Assembly (NCBI GenBank): GCA_964455935.1
Contig: CAYVZU010000008.1
Span: forward strand, 299-64,298
Direction: 5' to 3'
Length of the DNA: 64,000 nt
From: an uncultured Fibrobacterota bacterium
GTDB taxonomy: Bacteria; Fibrobacterota; CAYVZU01
Below are positions 32,717 through 39,078 of the stretch, piece by piece. The notes under the pieces were generated by a model that had not been told where the DNA came from, made no database searches, and saw only the letters and a program-made list of their open reading frames with translations. Both the position numbers and the translations under genes were made by a program. The first letter of the stretch is position 1. Each line of letters opens with the position of its first letter.

Positions 32717-33475
32717 ATGAGCGCCTATAAGACAATAATCCGCAATTTGAACTTCTTTTACGGAAGCCAACAGGCTCTTTTCGACATCACCATGGATATT
32801 GAGCCGTTTCAGGTCACGTCGCTGATCGGACCTTCGGGGTGCGGCAAATCCACATTTCTGCGCACGCTCAACCGCATGAATGATCTAATCGAGAATACCC
32901 GGGTCACCGGCGAGGTGATCGTCGACGGCCAGGACATTTATGGCAAGAAGGTGGATGTCGTGGCCTTGCGAAAGAAGGTTGGAATGGTCTTTCAGAAATC
33001 AAACCCATTCCCAAAAACAATTTTCGACAATGTCGCCTTCGGCCCCAGAATTCACGGGATTCACAACACAAACCGGCTTAACGAAATCGTGGAGAGCTGC
33101 CTGCTCCGGTCGGGCCTTTGGGATGAGGTCAAAGATCGGCTGCACACAAGCGCACTGGGTCTCTCGGGCGGTCAGCAGCAGCGGTTGTGCATCGCGCGCG
33201 CCCTGGCCGTGGACCCGGCAATTTTGCTGATGGATGAACCCGCTTCGGCCCTTGACCCGCGCTCGACCGCTAAGATCGAGGATCTGATTGCCGAATTGCG
33301 GAAGAACTATACCATCATCATTGTCACGCACAACATGCAGCAGGCCTCGCGCGTTTCCGATATCACGGCCTTCTTCTACGAGGGCCGCCTCATTGAAATG
33401 GGGCCAACCCGAAAGATCTTCACGAAACCCGACATCAAACAAACCGAAGACTATATCACCGGAAGATTTGGATAA
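32717..33475 (+). CDS. pstB: Phosphate ABC transporter ATPase PstB (fully canonical)
   Basis: Walker [10 protein letters not shown], signature LSGGQQQRL, Walker [12 protein letters not shown] and H-loop VTHNMQQA are all canonical. Confidence 0.95.
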
Positions 33476-33488
33476 GCGAGGAACCACC

Positions 33489-34169
33489 ATGGCAGTCCAC
33501 ATGCGCCGCGAGATCGACAAACTTAATCAGCAACTGCTTGAGCTTGGTACGCGGGTCGAAGAGGCGGTTGTGGCGGCCATTGCCGCCGTGGAGGAACAGG
33601 ACGTCGAGTCCGCCCGGCAGGTGATCCAAAACGACGAGCGAATCGATCGCAGTGAAATTGAGGTGGAAGAGGAATGCCTCAAGATTCTTGCCCTTTATCA
33701 GCCCGTGGCCATTGATCTCCGGTTCATTGTCGCGGTACTCAAGATCAACGGCGATTTGGAGAGGATTGGCGATCTGGCCGTTAATATCGCCGAACGGGCC
33801 ATGCTCCTGGCGTCCAAAGATGCGCCTTCCGTCGACTTCGATTTCCATCGAATGTCCCAGGAAGCCCTGGCCATGCTCAAGCAAAGCCTGGACGCACTGG
33901 TCAACATGGATGCCAACTTGGCCTATCGAGTCCTGAAATCCGATGATGAAATTGATTCTTTAAACCGCCAGAATTACGACAAAGTCATGTACGCTATCAA
34001 CAGCAATGCCCAGCACGCCAAGATCATGATCCATTACCTGAGCATTTCCCGTTTTCTCGAACGCCTGGCGGACCATGCCACCAATATTGCGGAAGACGTT
34101 ATCTATCTGGCGACCGGCGAGATCGTGCGCCATGCCGGAGAACAGGACAGGCCGACTTCTAACCCTTGA
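33489..34169 (+). CDS. phoU: Phosphate signalling regulator PhoU
   Basis: Start taken at MAVHMRREI (33489). Two PhoU repeats. Confidence 0.9.
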   Translation: MAVHMRREIDKLNQQLLELGTRVEEAVVAAIAAVEEQDVESARQVIQNDERIDRSEIEVEEECLKILALYQPVAIDLRFIVAVLKINGDLERIGDLAVNIAERAMLLASKDAPSVDFDFHRMSQEALAMLKQSLDALVNMDANLAYRVLKSDDEIDSLNRQNYDKVMYAINSNAQHAKIMIHYLSISRFLERLADHATNIAEDVIYLATGEIVRHAGEQDRPTSNP

Positions 34170-34269
34170 GCCGCCCAAGACCAGCCATTGAACAGGGCCT
34201 GGCATCTGGTTTGCTTATCTGGTTTGATTAATAGTGGCCGCGCATCCGCCAATCATTTATGGAGGAATC

Positions 34270-34809
34270 ATGCCTATCAAAACAGAGCAGGAAGAAAAGA
34301 TCAGCACGCAAGCGATGATGGAAGTGTACACGAAACTTGGAACCCCTGGCGCTCCCCATCAGTTTCTCGCCAGTTCGGCTGGAAGCTGGAAAATCACAGT
34401 CAAATCATGGATGGAGCCCGGCATGCCTCCAACGGAAAGCACTGGAACCAGCGAACTGAAGATGATCATGGGCGGCCGGTTTCTTCAGGAAGAGTTCACC
34501 GGTGAAATGATGGGGAAGAAGTTCACCGGCTTGGGGATTACAGGATACGATAATCATACGAAGAAATACGTGTCGACCTGGATCGACTCCATGGGGACCG
34601 CCATGCTCTTTTTCGAAGGATTCACCGACCCGGAAAACAGGGTTCTCACCCTGAAGAGCCGCTATGACGACCCATTCAAGGGTTCCATGACCTGGCGTTC
34701 GGTGACCACACACGTGGATGAAAACACTTGCCTTGTTGAAATGTGCAGCGTTGATCGGAGCGGCAAGGAAGAGAAGATGATGGAGATGTCCTACGTGCGC
34801 AGGCGCTAG
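34270..34809 (+). CDS. DUF1579-like protein
   Basis: ATG at 34270 with a GGAGGA RBS. The alternative start is 34234. Family assignment is from memory. Confidence 0.45.
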   Translation: MPIKTEQEEKISTQAMMEVYTKLGTPGAPHQFLASSAGSWKITVKSWMEPGMPPTESTGTSELKMIMGGRFLQEEFTGEMMGKKFTGLGITGYDNHTKKYVSTWIDSMGTAMLFFEGFTDPENRVLTLKSRYDDPFKGSMTWRSVTTHVDENTCLVEMCSVDRSGKEEKMMEMSYVRRR

Positions 34810-34893: not shown

Positions 34894-36795
34894 TTACAAT
34901 TCAACCCTTGATCCCAATTCCACAACGCGGTTGGGCGGAAGCCCATAAAAGCTTGTAGCGTCAAGAGCGTTGCGCGACATGAATTCGAACAGCTTTTTAC
35001 GCCACATTCGCATTGTGGGATGTTTTCCAATAACCAGCGATTCGCGCCCCAAAAAATAGGTGGTCGTCTCGGGTTTCAAAGCGCTATCCAAACCCGTGAG
35101 ATTCATAAGCGCCGCGGGAATATCGGGTGCCTCAAAAAAGCCGTAGCCGAGAATCACCCGAAAAATCCCATGCCCCAATGAGTCGACCCGCGCGCGCTGC
35201 GAAGCGGCCACATAGGGGATCTCCTGACTTTTTACCGCAAGGATGATCGTTCGTTCGTGCAGAACCATATTGTGCTTAAGATTGTGGAGCAGGGACCCGG
35301 GAACCGCTTCGGCATTGGCCGTTAAAAAAACGGCCGTCCGGGGGACCCGATTGAATTGCGTCACGTGCTCCGGAAGGATGCTTAACGGCATTGCGTTCGC
35401 AAAAATCCTCTTGCGCAAGACCTCCCGGCCGTCGATCCATGTCTTAAAAGAAATGAAGATCGCCGCTGCAATAATCAGCACGATCCATCCGCCGGTTCCA
35501 ATTTTTAGAAGGTTTGAGATAAGAAACGAGCAGTCAACAAGAAAGAATGCCGCAATCAGGGGCACAAGAAATATCCAGCGCTTCTTCCATAGCGCGCGCG
35601 AAACGAGCGCAAGGAGCATGGTTGTGATCAGCATTGTTGCCGAGACCGCGATCCCGTAGGCCCCTGCCAGGCGACCGGACTCTTTAAAACCAAGAATGAG
35701 GGCCAGCGTTCCAAAAAAGAGGCACCAATTCATAAACGGCACGTAAACCTGCCCTATTTCGCTGATTGAGGTATGACGAATCTGCACCCGGGGCCAGAAA
35801 CCAAGAGCCACGGCCTGTTTTGCCAATGAAAATGCGCCGGAGATCACCGCCTGCGATGCAATAACGGTCGCGGCGGTTGCCAAAACCACCATCGGGAGCA
35901 GAGCGCCGGGTGGAACAAGGCGATAAAACAGATTATCGATGGGTCTGTTTGCGCCCAGCAAATAGGCTCCTTGTCCGAAATAATTCAGCAGCAGGCCGGG
36001 AAGAACAATGCCATACCAGGCAAGTCGAATCGGCTTTCGTCCAAAATGACCAAGATCCGCGTAAAGGACTTCGGCCCCGGTAACCGCCAAAAAAACCGAA
36101 CTCAGAGTTTTAAAGCTGTACAGACCATTGCGGTCCAGGAAATCCATGGCAAGGACCGGGTTCAGGGCTGCCAGAATCGAAGGATCCTTTGCTATGGAGA
36201 TTGCGCCCAGCAGCCCCAGAACCAGAAACCAAAGCAAAACAACGGGGCCAAAAAGAGTACCGATTCGCGCGGTTCCTTTTGACTGAACCGCAAAGAGCGC
36301 GGCAAGAGTTCCGATCGCGACGGGAATAACATATGGCTTAAAAAGCGGTGTTGCCACATTCAGCCCTTCCACTGCGCTTAGAACGGAGATTGCCGGCGTT
36401 ATAATGCCGTCGCCAAAAAGCAGGGCGGCCCCAAGAATTCCCATGGAAAGCACCAACAGGGAGTTCTTTTTTCTGGGATCGGCCCGGCCTCGTTCCACAA
36501 GCGTCATGAGGGCCAGAATGCCCCCTTCCCCGTTGTTATCCGCACGCAGAACCAGAAAAACGTACTTAAAGGAAACAATCAGAAGGATGGTCCAAAGCAT
36601 AAGGGACACAACCCCCAATACATTCTCCTTTGTGGCGGGGACCGCGTGCGCGCCTAGGAAACATTCCCGAAGGGCATAGAGCGGACTGGTGCCGATGTCG
36701 CCGAAAACAATGCCCAGTGCAAGAAGGATTAAATGGGGAATTTTGCCCCTTGATTGTTGGTTGGAAACGAAAAATTGAGGTGTGGAAGAAAGCAT
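34894..36795 (-). CDS. kup: KUP/HAK/KT family potassium transporter
   Basis: GDIGTSPLY motif, 12 TM helices and a C-terminal cytoplasmic domain. Confidence 0.9.
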   Translation of the reverse strand: MLSSTPQFFVSNQQSRGKIPHLILLALGIVFGDIGTSPLYALRECFLGAHAVPATKENVLGVVSLMLWTILLIVSFKYVFLVLRADNNGEGGILALMTLVERGRADPRKKNSLLVLSMGILGAALLFGDGIITPAISVLSAVEGLNVATPLFKPYVIPVAIGTLAALFAVQSKGTARIGTLFGPVVLLWFLVLGLLGAISIAKDPSILAALNPVLAMDFLDRNGLYSFKTLSSVFLAVTGAEVLYADLGHFGRKPIRLAWYGIVLPGLLLNYFGQGAYLLGANRPIDNLFYRLVPPGALLPMVVLATAATVIASQAVISGAFSLAKQAVALGFWPRVQIRHTSISEIGQVYVPFMNWCLFFGTLALILGFKESGRLAGAYGIAVSATMLITTMLLALVSRALWKKRWIFLVPLIAAFFLVDCSFLISNLLKIGTGGWIVLIIAAAIFISFKTWIDGREVLRKRIFANAMPLSILPEHVTQFNRVPRTAVFLTANAEAVPGSLLHNLKHNMVLHERTIILAVKSQEIPYVAASQRARVDSLGHGIFRVILGYGFFEAPDIPAALMNLTGLDSALKPETTTYFLGRESLVIGKHPTMRMWRKKLFEFMSRNALDATSFYGLPPNRVVELGSRVEL

Positions 36796-36996
36796 TCATC
36801 CCCCAATGATTGCGGACCTGTGCGCGGGATTGCTCTTCGCGCTGACGGTGGTAAGCCCCGTGGTCGAGATCGCCGATGTAATGTTGAATAGGTTGTCTAT
36901 GAGCTTGCTCGGCTTGGTTCGGGAAAACAGAAGTGAAAGGAACCGTGTGCCAATGGGAGACGGTTGGATCGGTGTGTCTAATGACTGAGAATCCAT
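36796..36996 (-). CDS. 66-codon upstream ORF in the same frame as kup, separated from it by a single TGA
   Basis: GGAGG RBS 7 nt upstream of ATG 36996. Stop TGA 36798..36796 is immediately followed by the kup ATG. Coding status uncertain. Confidence 0.3.
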   Translation of the reverse strand: MDSQSLDTPIQPSPIGTRFLSLLFSRTKPSKLIDNLFNITSAISTTGLTTVSAKSNPAHRSAIIGG

Positions 36997-37065
36997 TTGG
37001 TTTACCTCCGGTTTTGGGGCATTACGGAGGCAGAACCGGAATGGTTACCTCACAATAACGCTCTC

Positions 37066-37190
37066 CCACATGCCTACGAGGTTAGCTGACGGGCTCGGGC
37101 TTGGAAGTGCCCTATCCTTGACGGAATACGCCCCAAGAGTTGGGTCCCCCGCATCCATGGTTTTCCCATGGATTTCGGCTACATCATTTG
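37066..37190 (-). promoter_or_regulatory. c-di-AMP riboswitch candidate (ydaO/kimA class) in the kup leader
   Basis: The minus-strand RNA contains GAUGCGGGGGACCC, UUGGGGCG..AUUCC and CCCGAGCCCGUCAGCUAACCUCGUAGGC. The last matches the conserved 3' block of the B. subtilis ydaO aptamer as I recall it. Confidence 0.6.
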
Positions 37191-37477
37191 TGAAACTTGT
37201 TAAACCTAAATGCCGCGGTTGCTGCTATTCGCTACGGGCAACTGCGGTTTTTGGGTTAAGATTCTGTTGCTAACCTCCCTTTGGTTGGATGGTTTCACAG
37301 TACGAGTATTTCGATGATGAAAAATATAGCAACAATAATTGGCGGCAATCAATTTGTTCAGCGCCCTTGTGGAACGCACAAGGTGCGATTTAAACGCAAA
37401 ATACCGTAGCGGTAACAGGGATACAAGCCGGGAGCCGCGCAGTCAGTCAGAAGCAGAAGGGATCTATGAGGCGGGTT

Positions 37478-38482
37478 CTATTGCCCGTCCTGCGAAACGA
37501 ACCGCGGGCTGCCGACTTGAATTGCCTGCGGGTACGTGCCGGGCAGCCGGCGGGTCTGCGGGAACTCCTGCCGGACCTGCTCCAACAGACAGTCGACCTT
37601 TGCGGAGTCCTCGTTTCGCACCGGCATTTGAATGAGATAATACGTTTCATTCCCGCCCGGAACAGCTCGCAGGTAAGCACGAACGCCGTCGTTCGCATTG
37701 GCGTAGTCGCCCCGGCCAAAGTTGAGGAGGCTGTCGATTTCGTGGTATGCGGTTGCCACGGCTTGCGGATTACGGCTCCCTTTTACCACGGCCTGATAGA
37801 TGGGCAATGCCTTTTGGGGCTGGCCAAGCATGCTATAGCAGTATCCCAGGTCGAGCATGGCCTTGTCGCGCTTGACGGTATGGAGCGCAAGATACTTCTG
37901 CAATGCGGCCGCGGCAGCCGCGAAATTTCTCTTTTTGATCAGGCGACCCGCAATTTCGTAGTGGTGGTCGTCGGACGATGCTCCATAGGGGAGTCGACCG
38001 GTTTTGGACTTGATCGTTTGCGGAGAAGGACGAACCTGCGCGGAATCGGGCTTTGCTTCCGGGGGGCGCGCCTGGCTGCCCGAATTCGGTATTGATGCCA
38101 CTTGCGGAGAAGGGGTCATCTTCTTTCCAAGGTCCAGTGCGTGGAAGAAATACCCGCCGAAAAAAACAAGGACCAATGCGGCAAAGCCCCAGGCGATTCG
38201 CAAACCTGCGAAAGTGGGAGACGTGTGCCGGACGGGAATCGGCCTGCGCTCCGCGGCGACAAGGGATCGCTCGACCATCATCCGGATTTCCGATCCGGAT
38301 AGCAAATCTTTTTCCGAAACAGGCGCGCGCAGCGCGGTTTCAATTTCCCGGAGGTCTTGGCAAAAAGCGCGGCACTTTTCGCACTGCTCCAGATGCCGGA
38401 GCAGGGCGGGTTTGGCGGATTCACCCAATTGTCCGCCAACCAAAAGATGAATCGGTTCTTCCCAGTGTCTGCAGGCCATCAT
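37478..38482 (-). CDS. Anti-sigma factor (zf-HC2, one TM, C-terminal TPR-like domain)
   Basis: HLEQCEKCR zinc-finger motif. Co-directional with, and overlapping, the ECF sigma gene. Confidence 0.7.
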   Translation of the reverse strand: MMACRHWEEPIHLLVGGQLGESAKPALLRHLEQCEKCRAFCQDLREIETALRAPVSEKDLLSGSEIRMMVERSLVAAERRPIPVRHTSPTFAGLRIAWGFAALVLVFFGGYFFHALDLGKKMTPSPQVASIPNSGSQARPPEAKPDSAQVRPSPQTIKSKTGRLPYGASSDDHHYEIAGRLIKKRNFAAAAAALQKYLALHTVKRDKAMLDLGYCYSMLGQPQKALPIYQAVVKGSRNPQAVATAYHEIDSLLNFGRGDYANANDGVRAYLRAVPGGNETYYLIQMPVRNEDSAKVDCLLEQVRQEFPQTRRLPGTYPQAIQVGSPRFVSQDGQ

Positions 38483-38484
38483 AT

Positions 38485-39078
38485 CTACATCACCCTCTGA
38501 TCCCGCAAGGCCTGTATGATTGCTTTGCGGCCTTTAAAGAGAATGGACTTGATTGCGTTTTCACTTTTGCGCGTGTGCCGCGCGATGTCGCGGACATCGC
38601 GGTCGGCGAAATAAAACATCGACAAGACTTCCCGATATTGATTGGGCAGATCCGCGATTGCCATCCTGGCCTTGTCGAAGAGCTGCTTTTTTTCGGTATG
38701 TTCCAATGGGTTCGGCTCGCGGCTTTCCCATGCATCTGCAATGGACTCCAAGGGGACCGTGTCCTTTCGCGCTTTCTCCCGGGCCAGAAAATCGAGATTC
38801 ACATTCACCGTGATGCGATAAATCCACGTGCCGAATTGTGAATCTTCCCGAAACTTGCCGATTCCATGAATGACACGCGCAACCACCTCCTGGAAAATAT
38901 CCGCCAGGTATTCGGGTTTTCGTGTCATTCGCAGGGAAATCCGCTGGATCATCTTTCCGTATGCCTTAAAAAGGTCGTGAAAAGCTTCCCGATCCCCATC
39001 TTTACATCGTCGGACAAGCTCATCCATGCGGTACCATATGGGGTGCCGCGGAGTCGGTTTTCGCCGAAACCCGGGCAA
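38485..39078 (-). CDS. ECF-type RNA polymerase sigma-70 factor
   Basis: Region 2 (FQEVVARVIHGIGKF) and region 4 (DLPNQYREVLSMFYFADRDVRDIA). The start may be the internal M at 39027. Confidence 0.85.
   Translation of the reverse strand: MPGFRRKPTPRHPIWYRMDELVRRCKDGDREAFHDLFKAYGKMIQRISLRMTRKPEYLADIFQEVVARVIHGIGKFREDSQFGTWIYRITVNVNLDFLAREKARKDTVPLESIADAWESREPNPLEHTEKKQLFDKARMAIADLPNQYREVLSMFYFADRDVRDIARHTRKSENAIKSILFKGRKAIIQALRDQRVM

Follow-up and report, generated by a model that had tools for sequence, protein, structure and literature searches.

Cyclic di-AMP (c-di-AMP) riboswitches are known to control K+ importers directly, as they do for ydaO/kimA and ktrAB of Bacillus subtilis. Here we describe a locus in which such a riboswitch precedes kup, the gene of a K+ importer, with a 66-codon open reading frame (ORF) lying between the two. 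It is found on a stretch of 64,000 nucleotides (nt) from an uncultured Fibrobacterota bacterium (GenBank assembly GCA_964455935.1, contig CAYVZU010000008.1, positions 299 to 64,298), hereafter the window, and positions are those of the window unless another locus is named. The ORF is almost certainly the stump of a second K+ transporter gene, ktrB. Our overall reading, which we moderately favor, is that the interval is a fusion scar joining two c-di-AMP-controlled K+-importer loci, with the stump possibly relaying control to kup. A c-di-AMP riboswitch has also been described for kdpFABC of B. thuringiensis, and the published Bacillus examples act by transcription termination (PMC6488665). The window resembles these loci in carrying the same aptamer family in the 5' leader of a K+ uptake gene, where OFF logic is expected. 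In the Gram-negative-type loci that we examined, an anti-Shine-Dalgarno (anti-SD) sequence CCUCC pairs with the Shine-Dalgarno (SD) sequence of the regulated gene and there is no terminator, as in the window. The difference lies in the target, since the expression platform acts on the transporter gene in those loci but on a dead 66-codon stump in the window.

Two further systems offer a basis for comparison. In the Mycobacterium tuberculosis ppe2 B12 riboswitch, a translational OFF switch, the platform occludes an upstream ORF (uORF), uPPE2, and not the main gene (Kipkorir et al. 2024, PMC11260477). In that system termination-reinitiation makes the main gene dependent on translation of the uORF, as was demonstrated experimentally, and Rho polarity was weighed as an alternative (PMC11260477). 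The window is similar in that its platform is predicted to occlude the initiation region of a uORF whose stop touches the start of the main gene. However, the ligand is B12 in one case and c-di-AMP in the other, and the 4-nt AUGA overlap of ppe2 is out of frame, whereas the window has an adjacent in-frame UGA-AUG. PPE2 has no SD, while kup has an SD-like motif of its own, so the lack of an own SD does not extend to this locus. Finally, the uORF of the window is the stump of another gene, is absent from the sister loci described below and is known here from sequence alone. The second system, the translationally coupled gene pairs of Huber et al. 2019 (PMC6728339), shares with the window a minimal stop-start distance and an SD-like motif at the end of the upstream ORF. 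Those pairs are functional operon genes, whereas the upstream partner here is a non-functional fragment and the coupling is putative. The parts of the locus on which the argument depends are as follows, all on the minus strand.

37056..37190, minus: c-di-AMP riboswitch aptamer (RF00379), from the Rfam covariance model, 87.8 bits
36986..37052, minus: expression platform, an interrupted 22-bp hairpin, from folding
36796..36996, minus: 66-codon ORF, the putative ktrB stump, ATG...TGA, 66 amino acids (aa), from the ORF list and homology
36829..36954, minus: TrkH/KtrB-homologous core of the stump, from profile, phmmer and tblastn searches
36860..36979, minus: C-rich, G-poor, weakly structured rut-like tract inside the stump, from composition and folding
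36805..36828, minus: junction filler forming the last stump codons, with neither ktrB homology nor clear homology to the sister kup leaders
36793..36804, minus: native kup initiation module GGGGG-AUGAAUG, from alignment with sister locus L174
36775..36793, minus: pyrimidine-rich element GCUUUCUUC..CCUCAA in the first kup codons, from DNA alignment with L174
34894..36795, minus: kup, 633 aa, a KUP-family K+ importer, from Pfam and TIGR00794

The aptamer belongs by sequence to the c-di-AMP riboswitch class RF00379 (ydaO/yuaA), and ligand binding is predicted. It spans the whole model without truncation (positions 1-134 of 134; gathering score, 38 bits) and sits on the same strand in the 5' leader of both the stump and kup, a K+ transport context. 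An earlier description made by a model from the letters of the window (the sequence-only reading) had placed a hairpin directly 3' of the riboswitch, and the platform does begin 4 nt past the aptamer end. That reading also identified the correct partners, the SD GGAGG at 37009..37005 and the anti-SD CCUCCG at 37030..37025, but the loop is 14 nt and not 13, and the stem is larger than was described. In the extended stem the anti-SD UGCCUCCG (37032..37025) pairs with CGGAGGUA (37010..37003), and additional pairs bury the stump AUG and codons 2-4. Here and throughout, structures are folding predictions. The platform hairpin has a minimum free energy (MFE) of -24.4 kcal/mol (z = -2.97), a value reached by none of 200 shuffled sequences, and the ensemble probability of being unpaired is 0.00 for the stump SD and 0.03 for its AUG. 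A terminator scan from the aptamer to kup found no U-tract or intrinsic terminator between 37056 and 36796 on the minus strand, so the platform is best read as translational. The stump ATG lies 8 nt after its SD and 54 nt past the end of the aptamer model, the usual place of the regulated start in the comparison loci, and the kup ATG sits 200 nt beyond it. The platform is thus positioned, in the folding model, to gate the initiation site of the stump and not that of kup.

Some other pairings and a candidate mechanism touch on the platform. The tract that follows the aptamer, UGGGAGAGCGUU (37057-37068), pairs at 10 of 12 positions with stump codons 11-14, AACCGUCUCCCA (36954-36965), at -19.6 kcal/mol, and this could possibly be an alternative platform helix. 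At 37269-37277 on the minus strand, 79 nt 5' of the aptamer, GAGGUUAGC is perfectly complementary to the conserved GCUAACCUC of the aptamer (37078-37086); chance alone would supply about one 9-mer pair of this kind in the region. Leader-peptide attenuation of the trp/his type was considered and rejected, because the scan of this interval gave no terminator, the ORF contains no codon run and it is a gene fragment.

The ORF itself is as the sequence-only reading gave it, running on the minus strand from 36996 to 36796, ATG to TGA, over 66 codons. The peptide had been described as having no recognisable family, and this is where that reading must be revised. Stump residues 20-56 match positions 4-40 of the 391 in the TrkH/KtrB profile TIGR00933 (E 2.2e-5, 23.7 bits). 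Among 1.84 billion representative proteins, phmmer found five significant matches besides the peptide itself (E 1.4e-5 to 3.7e-4), all aligned near their own N-termini, and the four long ones are TrkH proteins by Pfam. One of these five, P0006, finds the stump again by tblastn (36939..36841, 73% identity, E 9e-9), and the stump is the sole TrkH-like sequence that this query detects in the 64 kb. The best PDB match is B. subtilis KtrB, residues 30-67. Stump residues 15-55 align without gaps to repeat 1 of that protein (PDB 4J7C) and comprise the end of helix M1, the first pore helix and the selectivity-filter segment (IGTRFLSLLFSRTKPSKLIDNLFNITSAISTTGLTTVSAK). In the aligned core the stump reads LIDNLFNITSAISTTGLTTVS and the family consensus FIDNLFTATSAVSTTGLATVD. 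Identity to the consensus is 58.5%, compared with 59.4 +/- 4.9% in 123 real KtrB N-termini, and one strongly conserved residue has changed, no more. With a core as near to consensus as that of real KtrB proteins, the stump has hardly decayed.

What is present is nevertheless a small piece of a gene. About 8 residues of M1 are missing, and similarity to KtrB ends near residue 55-57 (about 36829-36832); no continuation of ktrB past the stump was found in the other reading frames. Members of the TrkH/KtrB family have four M1-P-M2 repeats in about 420-480 aa, an architecture to which the stump does not conform (23.7 bits against a cutoff of 331, and no Pfam match). With M1 truncated and nothing past the first pore loop, the stump is a gene fragment and not a TrkH member protein. 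It retains about 41 of about 450 residues, with half of M1, all of M2 and repeats 2-4 missing, and is incapable of forming a pore. Decay or frameshifting of ktrB genes seems to be common. For example, ktrB genes are split into 2-4 ORF calls at L163:2501-3843, L172:1501-2891 and L167:2501-3851, reproducibly across many contigs and runs. One is divided into pieces of 93 aa and 354 aa with a 4-nt overlap on 11 contigs, and another is a riboswitch-controlled ktrB of the Verrucomicrobiia.

Downstream of the stump, kup by its sequence encodes a complete KUP-family K+ importer without any extension. The protein of 633 aa contains K_trans (PF02705, residues 23-472, 2e-175) and K_trans_C (PF22776, residues 485-633, 5e-47), NF008015 spans residues 14-633, and TIGR00794 scores 540.6 bits against a cutoff of 539.6. 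The stump ends GGG GGA TGA and the kup ATG (36795..36793) is the very next codon in the same frame, as the sequence-only reading had observed. That reading had offered, as an alternative, that Kup once carried a 67-residue N-terminal extension now interrupted by a stop, and had named a sequencing correction removing the TGA as a result that would refute its proposal. A longer Kup that is mis-sequenced, pseudogenising or read through at a recoded UGA to give a KtrB'-Kup fusion would account for a TGA in frame with kup, and stop suppression is known at the uORF-gene junction of M. tuberculosis ppe2 (PMC11260477). This is the least probable of the explanations that we weighed. The ORF and junction are identical on a 64,372-nt NCBI contig, on a groundwater contig at ENA that is 100% identical and on a JGI contig that is 99.9% identical, its 4 single-nucleotide polymorphisms all falling within kup; three assemblies thus agree on the stop. 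Kup homologues begin at the equivalent of residues 1-30 and none is extended, and the upstream peptide is TrkH-like and has no complete transmembrane helix. TGA is also the commonest stop among the long ORFs of the window (17 of 35); an alternative genetic code or selenocysteine was rejected on the same ground, TGA being the major stop.

The in-frame relation has a simpler origin, which can be seen by comparison with close relatives. A protein search gave as the nearest relatives of the window Kup those of L174, L175 and L176, at 76%, 69% and 68% identity, whereas earlier scans of reference genomes and metagenomes had yielded about 160 loci with relatives at no more than 56%. The comparison consists of three informative loci, all of them metagenomic. 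The SD-ATG-kup module of L174 aligns to the kup-proximal GGGGGATGAATG... of the window (z 3.98, p 0.003), in the form TGGGGG----ATGAAT-------GCTTTCTTC--CACACCTCAA for the window and TGGAGGTTGTATGAATCCGCTTCGCTTTCTTCTTCATTCCTCAA for L174, with homology starting at about 36805. The same L174 query against the start of the stump gives p 0.81. Because the L174 module matches the kup-proximal site and not the stump start, the window holds two initiation modules. The junction can accordingly be divided into a degenerate SD at 36804..36800, the ancestral kup ATG at 36799..36797 and the stump TGA at 36798..36796. The degenerate GGGGG stands 4 nt before the present kup ATG. L174 and L175 have a spacer of equal length, and the functional GGAGG of these sisters is its homologue. 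The stump frame continues for about 10 codons beyond ktrB homology before meeting a TGA that lies within ATGAAT, the ancestral start of kup. The present ATG of kup lies at the joint (AAT|G) where 7 nt are missing relative to L174. Given the resulting sequence ATGAATG, the in-frame adjacency of stop and start is largely a by-product and not design. This deletion joint accounts for the relation that a broken or recoded Kup was meant to explain.

Two observations belong with this junction. A 77-aa ORF at 36566-36799 on the minus strand (MNAFFHTS...; compare MNPLRFLLHSS in L174) starts at the ancestral kup ATG and is out of frame; it is a by-product of the junction indels and no gene. The pyrimidine-rich element GCUUUCUUC..CCUCAA, which is also present at L174:3014-3034, is conserved as DNA between the window and L174 despite different reading frames. 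Its conservation hints at a role at the RNA level, for example in pairing with the purine-rich tract after the aptamer.

L174 and L175 have c-di-AMP aptamers of 79.8 and 82.9 bits, both below the score of the window, and an SD-sequestering hairpin that acts directly on the kup start, which lies 4 nt past GGAGG and 53-56 nt past the end of the Rfam aptamer (probability of the SD being unpaired, 0.00-0.02). Between riboswitch and kup, neither locus has an ORF or ktrB-like sequence. L176 has no c-di-AMP aptamer. Outside this group, nine of the roughly 160 loci from the scans carry the riboswitch, all of them kup loci of Desulfobulbus type (L018, L025, L040, L048, L112, L116, L127, L128 and L136), about 50-150 nt upstream of kup, with a conserved platform GGGAGCCUCCGGUUG...CAACAGGAGAAC followed by a GTG start. 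The anti-SD GCCUCCGG pairs there with the kup SD and no terminator is present. At those Desulfobulbus-type loci with readable output the kup GTG lies 43-47 nt past the end of the aptamer model, and there is no uORF.

These loci bear on the proposal in the sequence-only reading that the riboswitch controls a leader ORF coupled to kup. The anatomy on which it was founded holds. An evolved leader peptide or uORF, that is, a dedicated and conserved short ORF that senses a signal through its translation or its nascent peptide and controls kup, would indeed be expected to show a hairpin, a good SD with an ATG and a stop adjoining the start of kup, as this ORF does. However, the comparison of orthologous loci that had been suggested as a check refutes a conserved leader, because the ORF is missing from L174, L175 and the nine Desulfobulbus-type riboswitch-kup loci. 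Its sequence is that of a ktrB fragment, and a word-indexed search of 5.8 billion proteins with the stump peptide matched itself alone. We therefore regard a dedicated leader as highly improbable.

Care must also be taken to establish when the stump arose. In a neighbor-joining tree of Kup, the window and L174 are sisters with 100% bootstrap support, and L175 and L176 fall outside. As L174 and L175 lack the stump and the window is nested with L174, the stump is most simply derived in the lineage of the window, and we think this quite probable. The alternative is that the stump is ancestral, kup having first gained c-di-AMP riboswitch control by insertion into a riboswitch-controlled ktrB; the window would then retain this intermediate, and the sisters would later have deleted the 205 nt between GGAGG ... 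GGGGG. A single deletion between two SD sites does turn the window layout into that of L174, and kup acquired the riboswitch somewhere near this clade, neither L176 nor the more distant Kup loci having one. In addition, stump residues 18-29 (RFLSLLFSRTKP, 36945-36910) resemble the Kup N-terminus of L175 (RLLSRLFRRQKP, L175:3004-3039) at 8 of 12 positions (shuffle p 0.003), both with Leu at the family's conserved Pro. This likeness finds no support as homology in a DNA alignment or the KtrB profile, against which the L175 N-terminus scores nothing. Moreover, with the window nested among stumpless members, two independent and near-identical deletions would be needed, the window departs from the synteny that L174 and L175 have in common and from their riboswitch, 91.5% identical between the two, and an old stump should have decayed, which this one has not. 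An ancestral stump is accordingly an improbable account of the locus.

The riboswitch tells a different history from that of the gene behind it. Aptamer and platform are 91.5% identical between L174 and L175, while those of the window are about 79% identical to each. The informative sites of the riboswitch divide 26:7:6, the first class being sites where L174 equals L175, versus 191:290:201 in kup DNA (Fisher p 1.4e-5). L174 and L175 also share upstream synteny (NifU, an aminotransferase and HMA), none of which is found in the window. The disagreement between the riboswitch and the Kup tree suggests that aptamer, platform and ktrB stump came as one block, and the sequences further suggest that this block took the place of the riboswitch that kup had, as far as the kup SD. 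A joint arrival of aptamer and stump is, in our judgment, rather likely. Donor-type loci of the kind required exist in the wider group, since a metagenome-assembled genome (MAG) of the Verrucomicrobiia has an aptamer (55 bits) ahead of ktrB, and the N-terminus encoded there shares 51% identity with the stump. The aptamer of the window is 64% identical to that riboswitch. Nine further ktrB loci with similar N-termini have no riboswitch, with the exception of L167. A search for repeats or microhomology at the edges of the block gave short matches at chance level only. As the stump core is undecayed, the event looks recent.

The fusion would thus have two parts. To the left is a riboswitch with a translational platform that would still be tied to the first ~55 codons of its own gene, ktrB/trkH. 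To the right is kup with its native SD-ATG; its own riboswitch survives in the sisters and was presumably removed here by the same event. The 7-nt gap relative to L174 would have created the in-frame kup ATG right after the stump TGA. If the platform gates the stump and not kup, the c-di-AMP signal must pass through the stump to reach kup. Binding of c-di-AMP would favor the hairpin and block translation of the stump, with one or both of two possible consequences. By the first route, an untranslated stump would leave no ribosomes at UGA-AUG to reinitiate at, or to unmask, the kup start. By the second, the untranslated, C-rich and unstructured stump RNA would allow Rho to terminate transcription ahead of kup. 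At low c-di-AMP the stump would be translated and kup expressed.

Both routes find some basis in the sequence. Reinitiation should work best when stop and start are as close as possible, and an internal SD frequently helps it (PMC6728339); the zero-distance stop-start here, with an SD-like GGGGG 4 nt upstream, would be favorable for it. For Rho, attenuation of the mgtA/ribB type by riboswitches has been described (Hollands et al. 2012, as cited in PMC11260477). The RNA needed for Rho attenuation is C-rich, G-poor and unstructured over ~80 nt or more and becomes exposed once translation stops, and by composition alone the tract at 36979..36860 is of this kind. Over both strands, 0.02% of 120-nt windows attain its (C-G)/L of 0.21, and its MFE of -17.2 kcal/mol compares with -35.3 +/- 7.2 kcal/mol in random 120-mers, 0.3% of which are as weak. 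With this C-over-G skew and low structure, an untranslated stump would be a good Rho loading site. Among routes by which the signal could reach kup, coupling through the stump is the most plausible, and we infer from these features that c-di-AMP still controls kup. That translation of the stump relays this control seems to us close to an even call, if a little short of one. Slightly more tentative again is the stronger form, in which a transplanted riboswitch brought ~55 codons of its old gene and the dead stump became an obligatory translated relay, by reinitiation and/or Rho shielding.

Several points weigh against the fusion-and-relay reading and must be set beside it. Folding yielded several weak candidates for an ON-state (anti-sequestor) helix, including a nested CCGGUU/AACCGG, none of them convincing. 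The CCUC of the pyrimidine-rich element can pair with the kup SD (probability unpaired 0.10), a possible unmasking element, but this hairpin is not beyond chance (z -1.22; 24 of 200 shuffles fold as well). Similarly, 5% of random windows equal the -19.4 kcal/mol of the long-range pairing between the post-aptamer tract and the kup start, and the tract pairs just as well with a site in the stump. If the event is recent, selection need not be invoked for the open frame or the TGA-ATG layout, and given ATGAAT the stump frame had about a 1-in-3 chance of meeting that TGA. The C-richness probably follows from Ser/Thr/Leu-rich coding, with no evidence of selection. The native-looking SD of kup, with its sister-like 4-nt spacing, means that kup could initiate alone and escape control. 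With three sequences only, faster evolution of the window aptamer is possible in place of its replacement. Lastly, the relay is deduced from sequence and predicted folding.

Many of these points are also what one would expect if the stump were an inert scar. On that account the stump has no function, kup is translated from its own SD and the riboswitch is stranded; c-di-AMP would act on kup RNA not at all, or weakly through mRNA stability, and any control would be exerted at the protein level. The retained kup SD-ATG fits this account, as do the non-significant kup-SD hairpin and long-range pairing, and an undecayed stump core implies too little time for selection. Protein-level control has precedent as well, c-di-AMP binding directly to the Kup-family proteins KupA and KupB of Lactococcus lactis according to a reference cited in PMC11302148. 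However, a stranded riboswitch sits uneasily with an aptamer that is fully intact and scores above those of the sisters, and with a strong platform hairpin. An untranslated C-rich leader of 200 nt would normally cause polarity. The stump frame also stops exactly at the kup start, whereas the remaining two frames would take stump ribosomes 20-77 codons into kup, and mild selection for the present frame is plausible. We consider an inert scar unlikely, though it is the most serious competitor to the fusion with a relaying stump.

The aptamer and Kup, judged by sequence, are ordinary members of their families. The arrangement would work like the ppe2 relay and differs from it above all in the origin of the uORF, a stump of the riboswitch's former gene. 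The spread of translational riboswitches to new genes is puzzling, since the switching helix embeds the SD and start of the regulated gene. Comparison of this locus with its two sisters points to one route, in which a riboswitch and a 5' stump of ktrB were joined to a kup that was formerly under the same class of riboswitch. If the relay is true, the locus would be a natural counterpart of ppe2 and a natural case of an SD-sequestering riboswitch capturing another gene, and would open a simple design rule to testing: a riboswitch followed by a stump ORF that ends at the target start. If there is no relay, it would be an example of a freshly stranded riboswitch. In either case, both a conserved leader peptide and a broken Kup extension are explained away.

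The surroundings of the locus can be described more briefly. One further feature may belong to the transcript.

37323..37352, minus: candidate sigma-70-type promoter TTGATT, 18 nt, TG-TATATT, from a motif scan

This site has 9 of 12 matches and an extended -10, and would serve a riboswitch-stump-kup transcript; it is a candidate only, because one site was found where 0.7 are expected. Further upstream, a terminator-like hairpin at 37414..37402 ends an operon of a putative extracytoplasmic function (ECF) sigma/anti-sigma pair, assigned by sequence (38485..39078 and 37478..38482, minus). Downstream, a DUF1579 gene and a PhoU gene (33288-34809, plus) lie on the opposite strand and converge on kup. 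Among the comparison loci, L176 has a perfect CCUCC/GGAGG hairpin UCCUCCgugucggaaGGAGGA just 5' of the kup ATG (L176:740-783), in the absence of a riboswitch. In L175 a second kup follows directly 3' of the first (L175:5085-6359), 67% identical to the window Kup over 392 aa and reaching the contig end; the riboswitch of this tandem pair stands ahead of the first copy only. At L017:5185-5272, in a Gemmatimonadales MAG, a cyclic di-GMP-I riboswitch lies 3' of kup.

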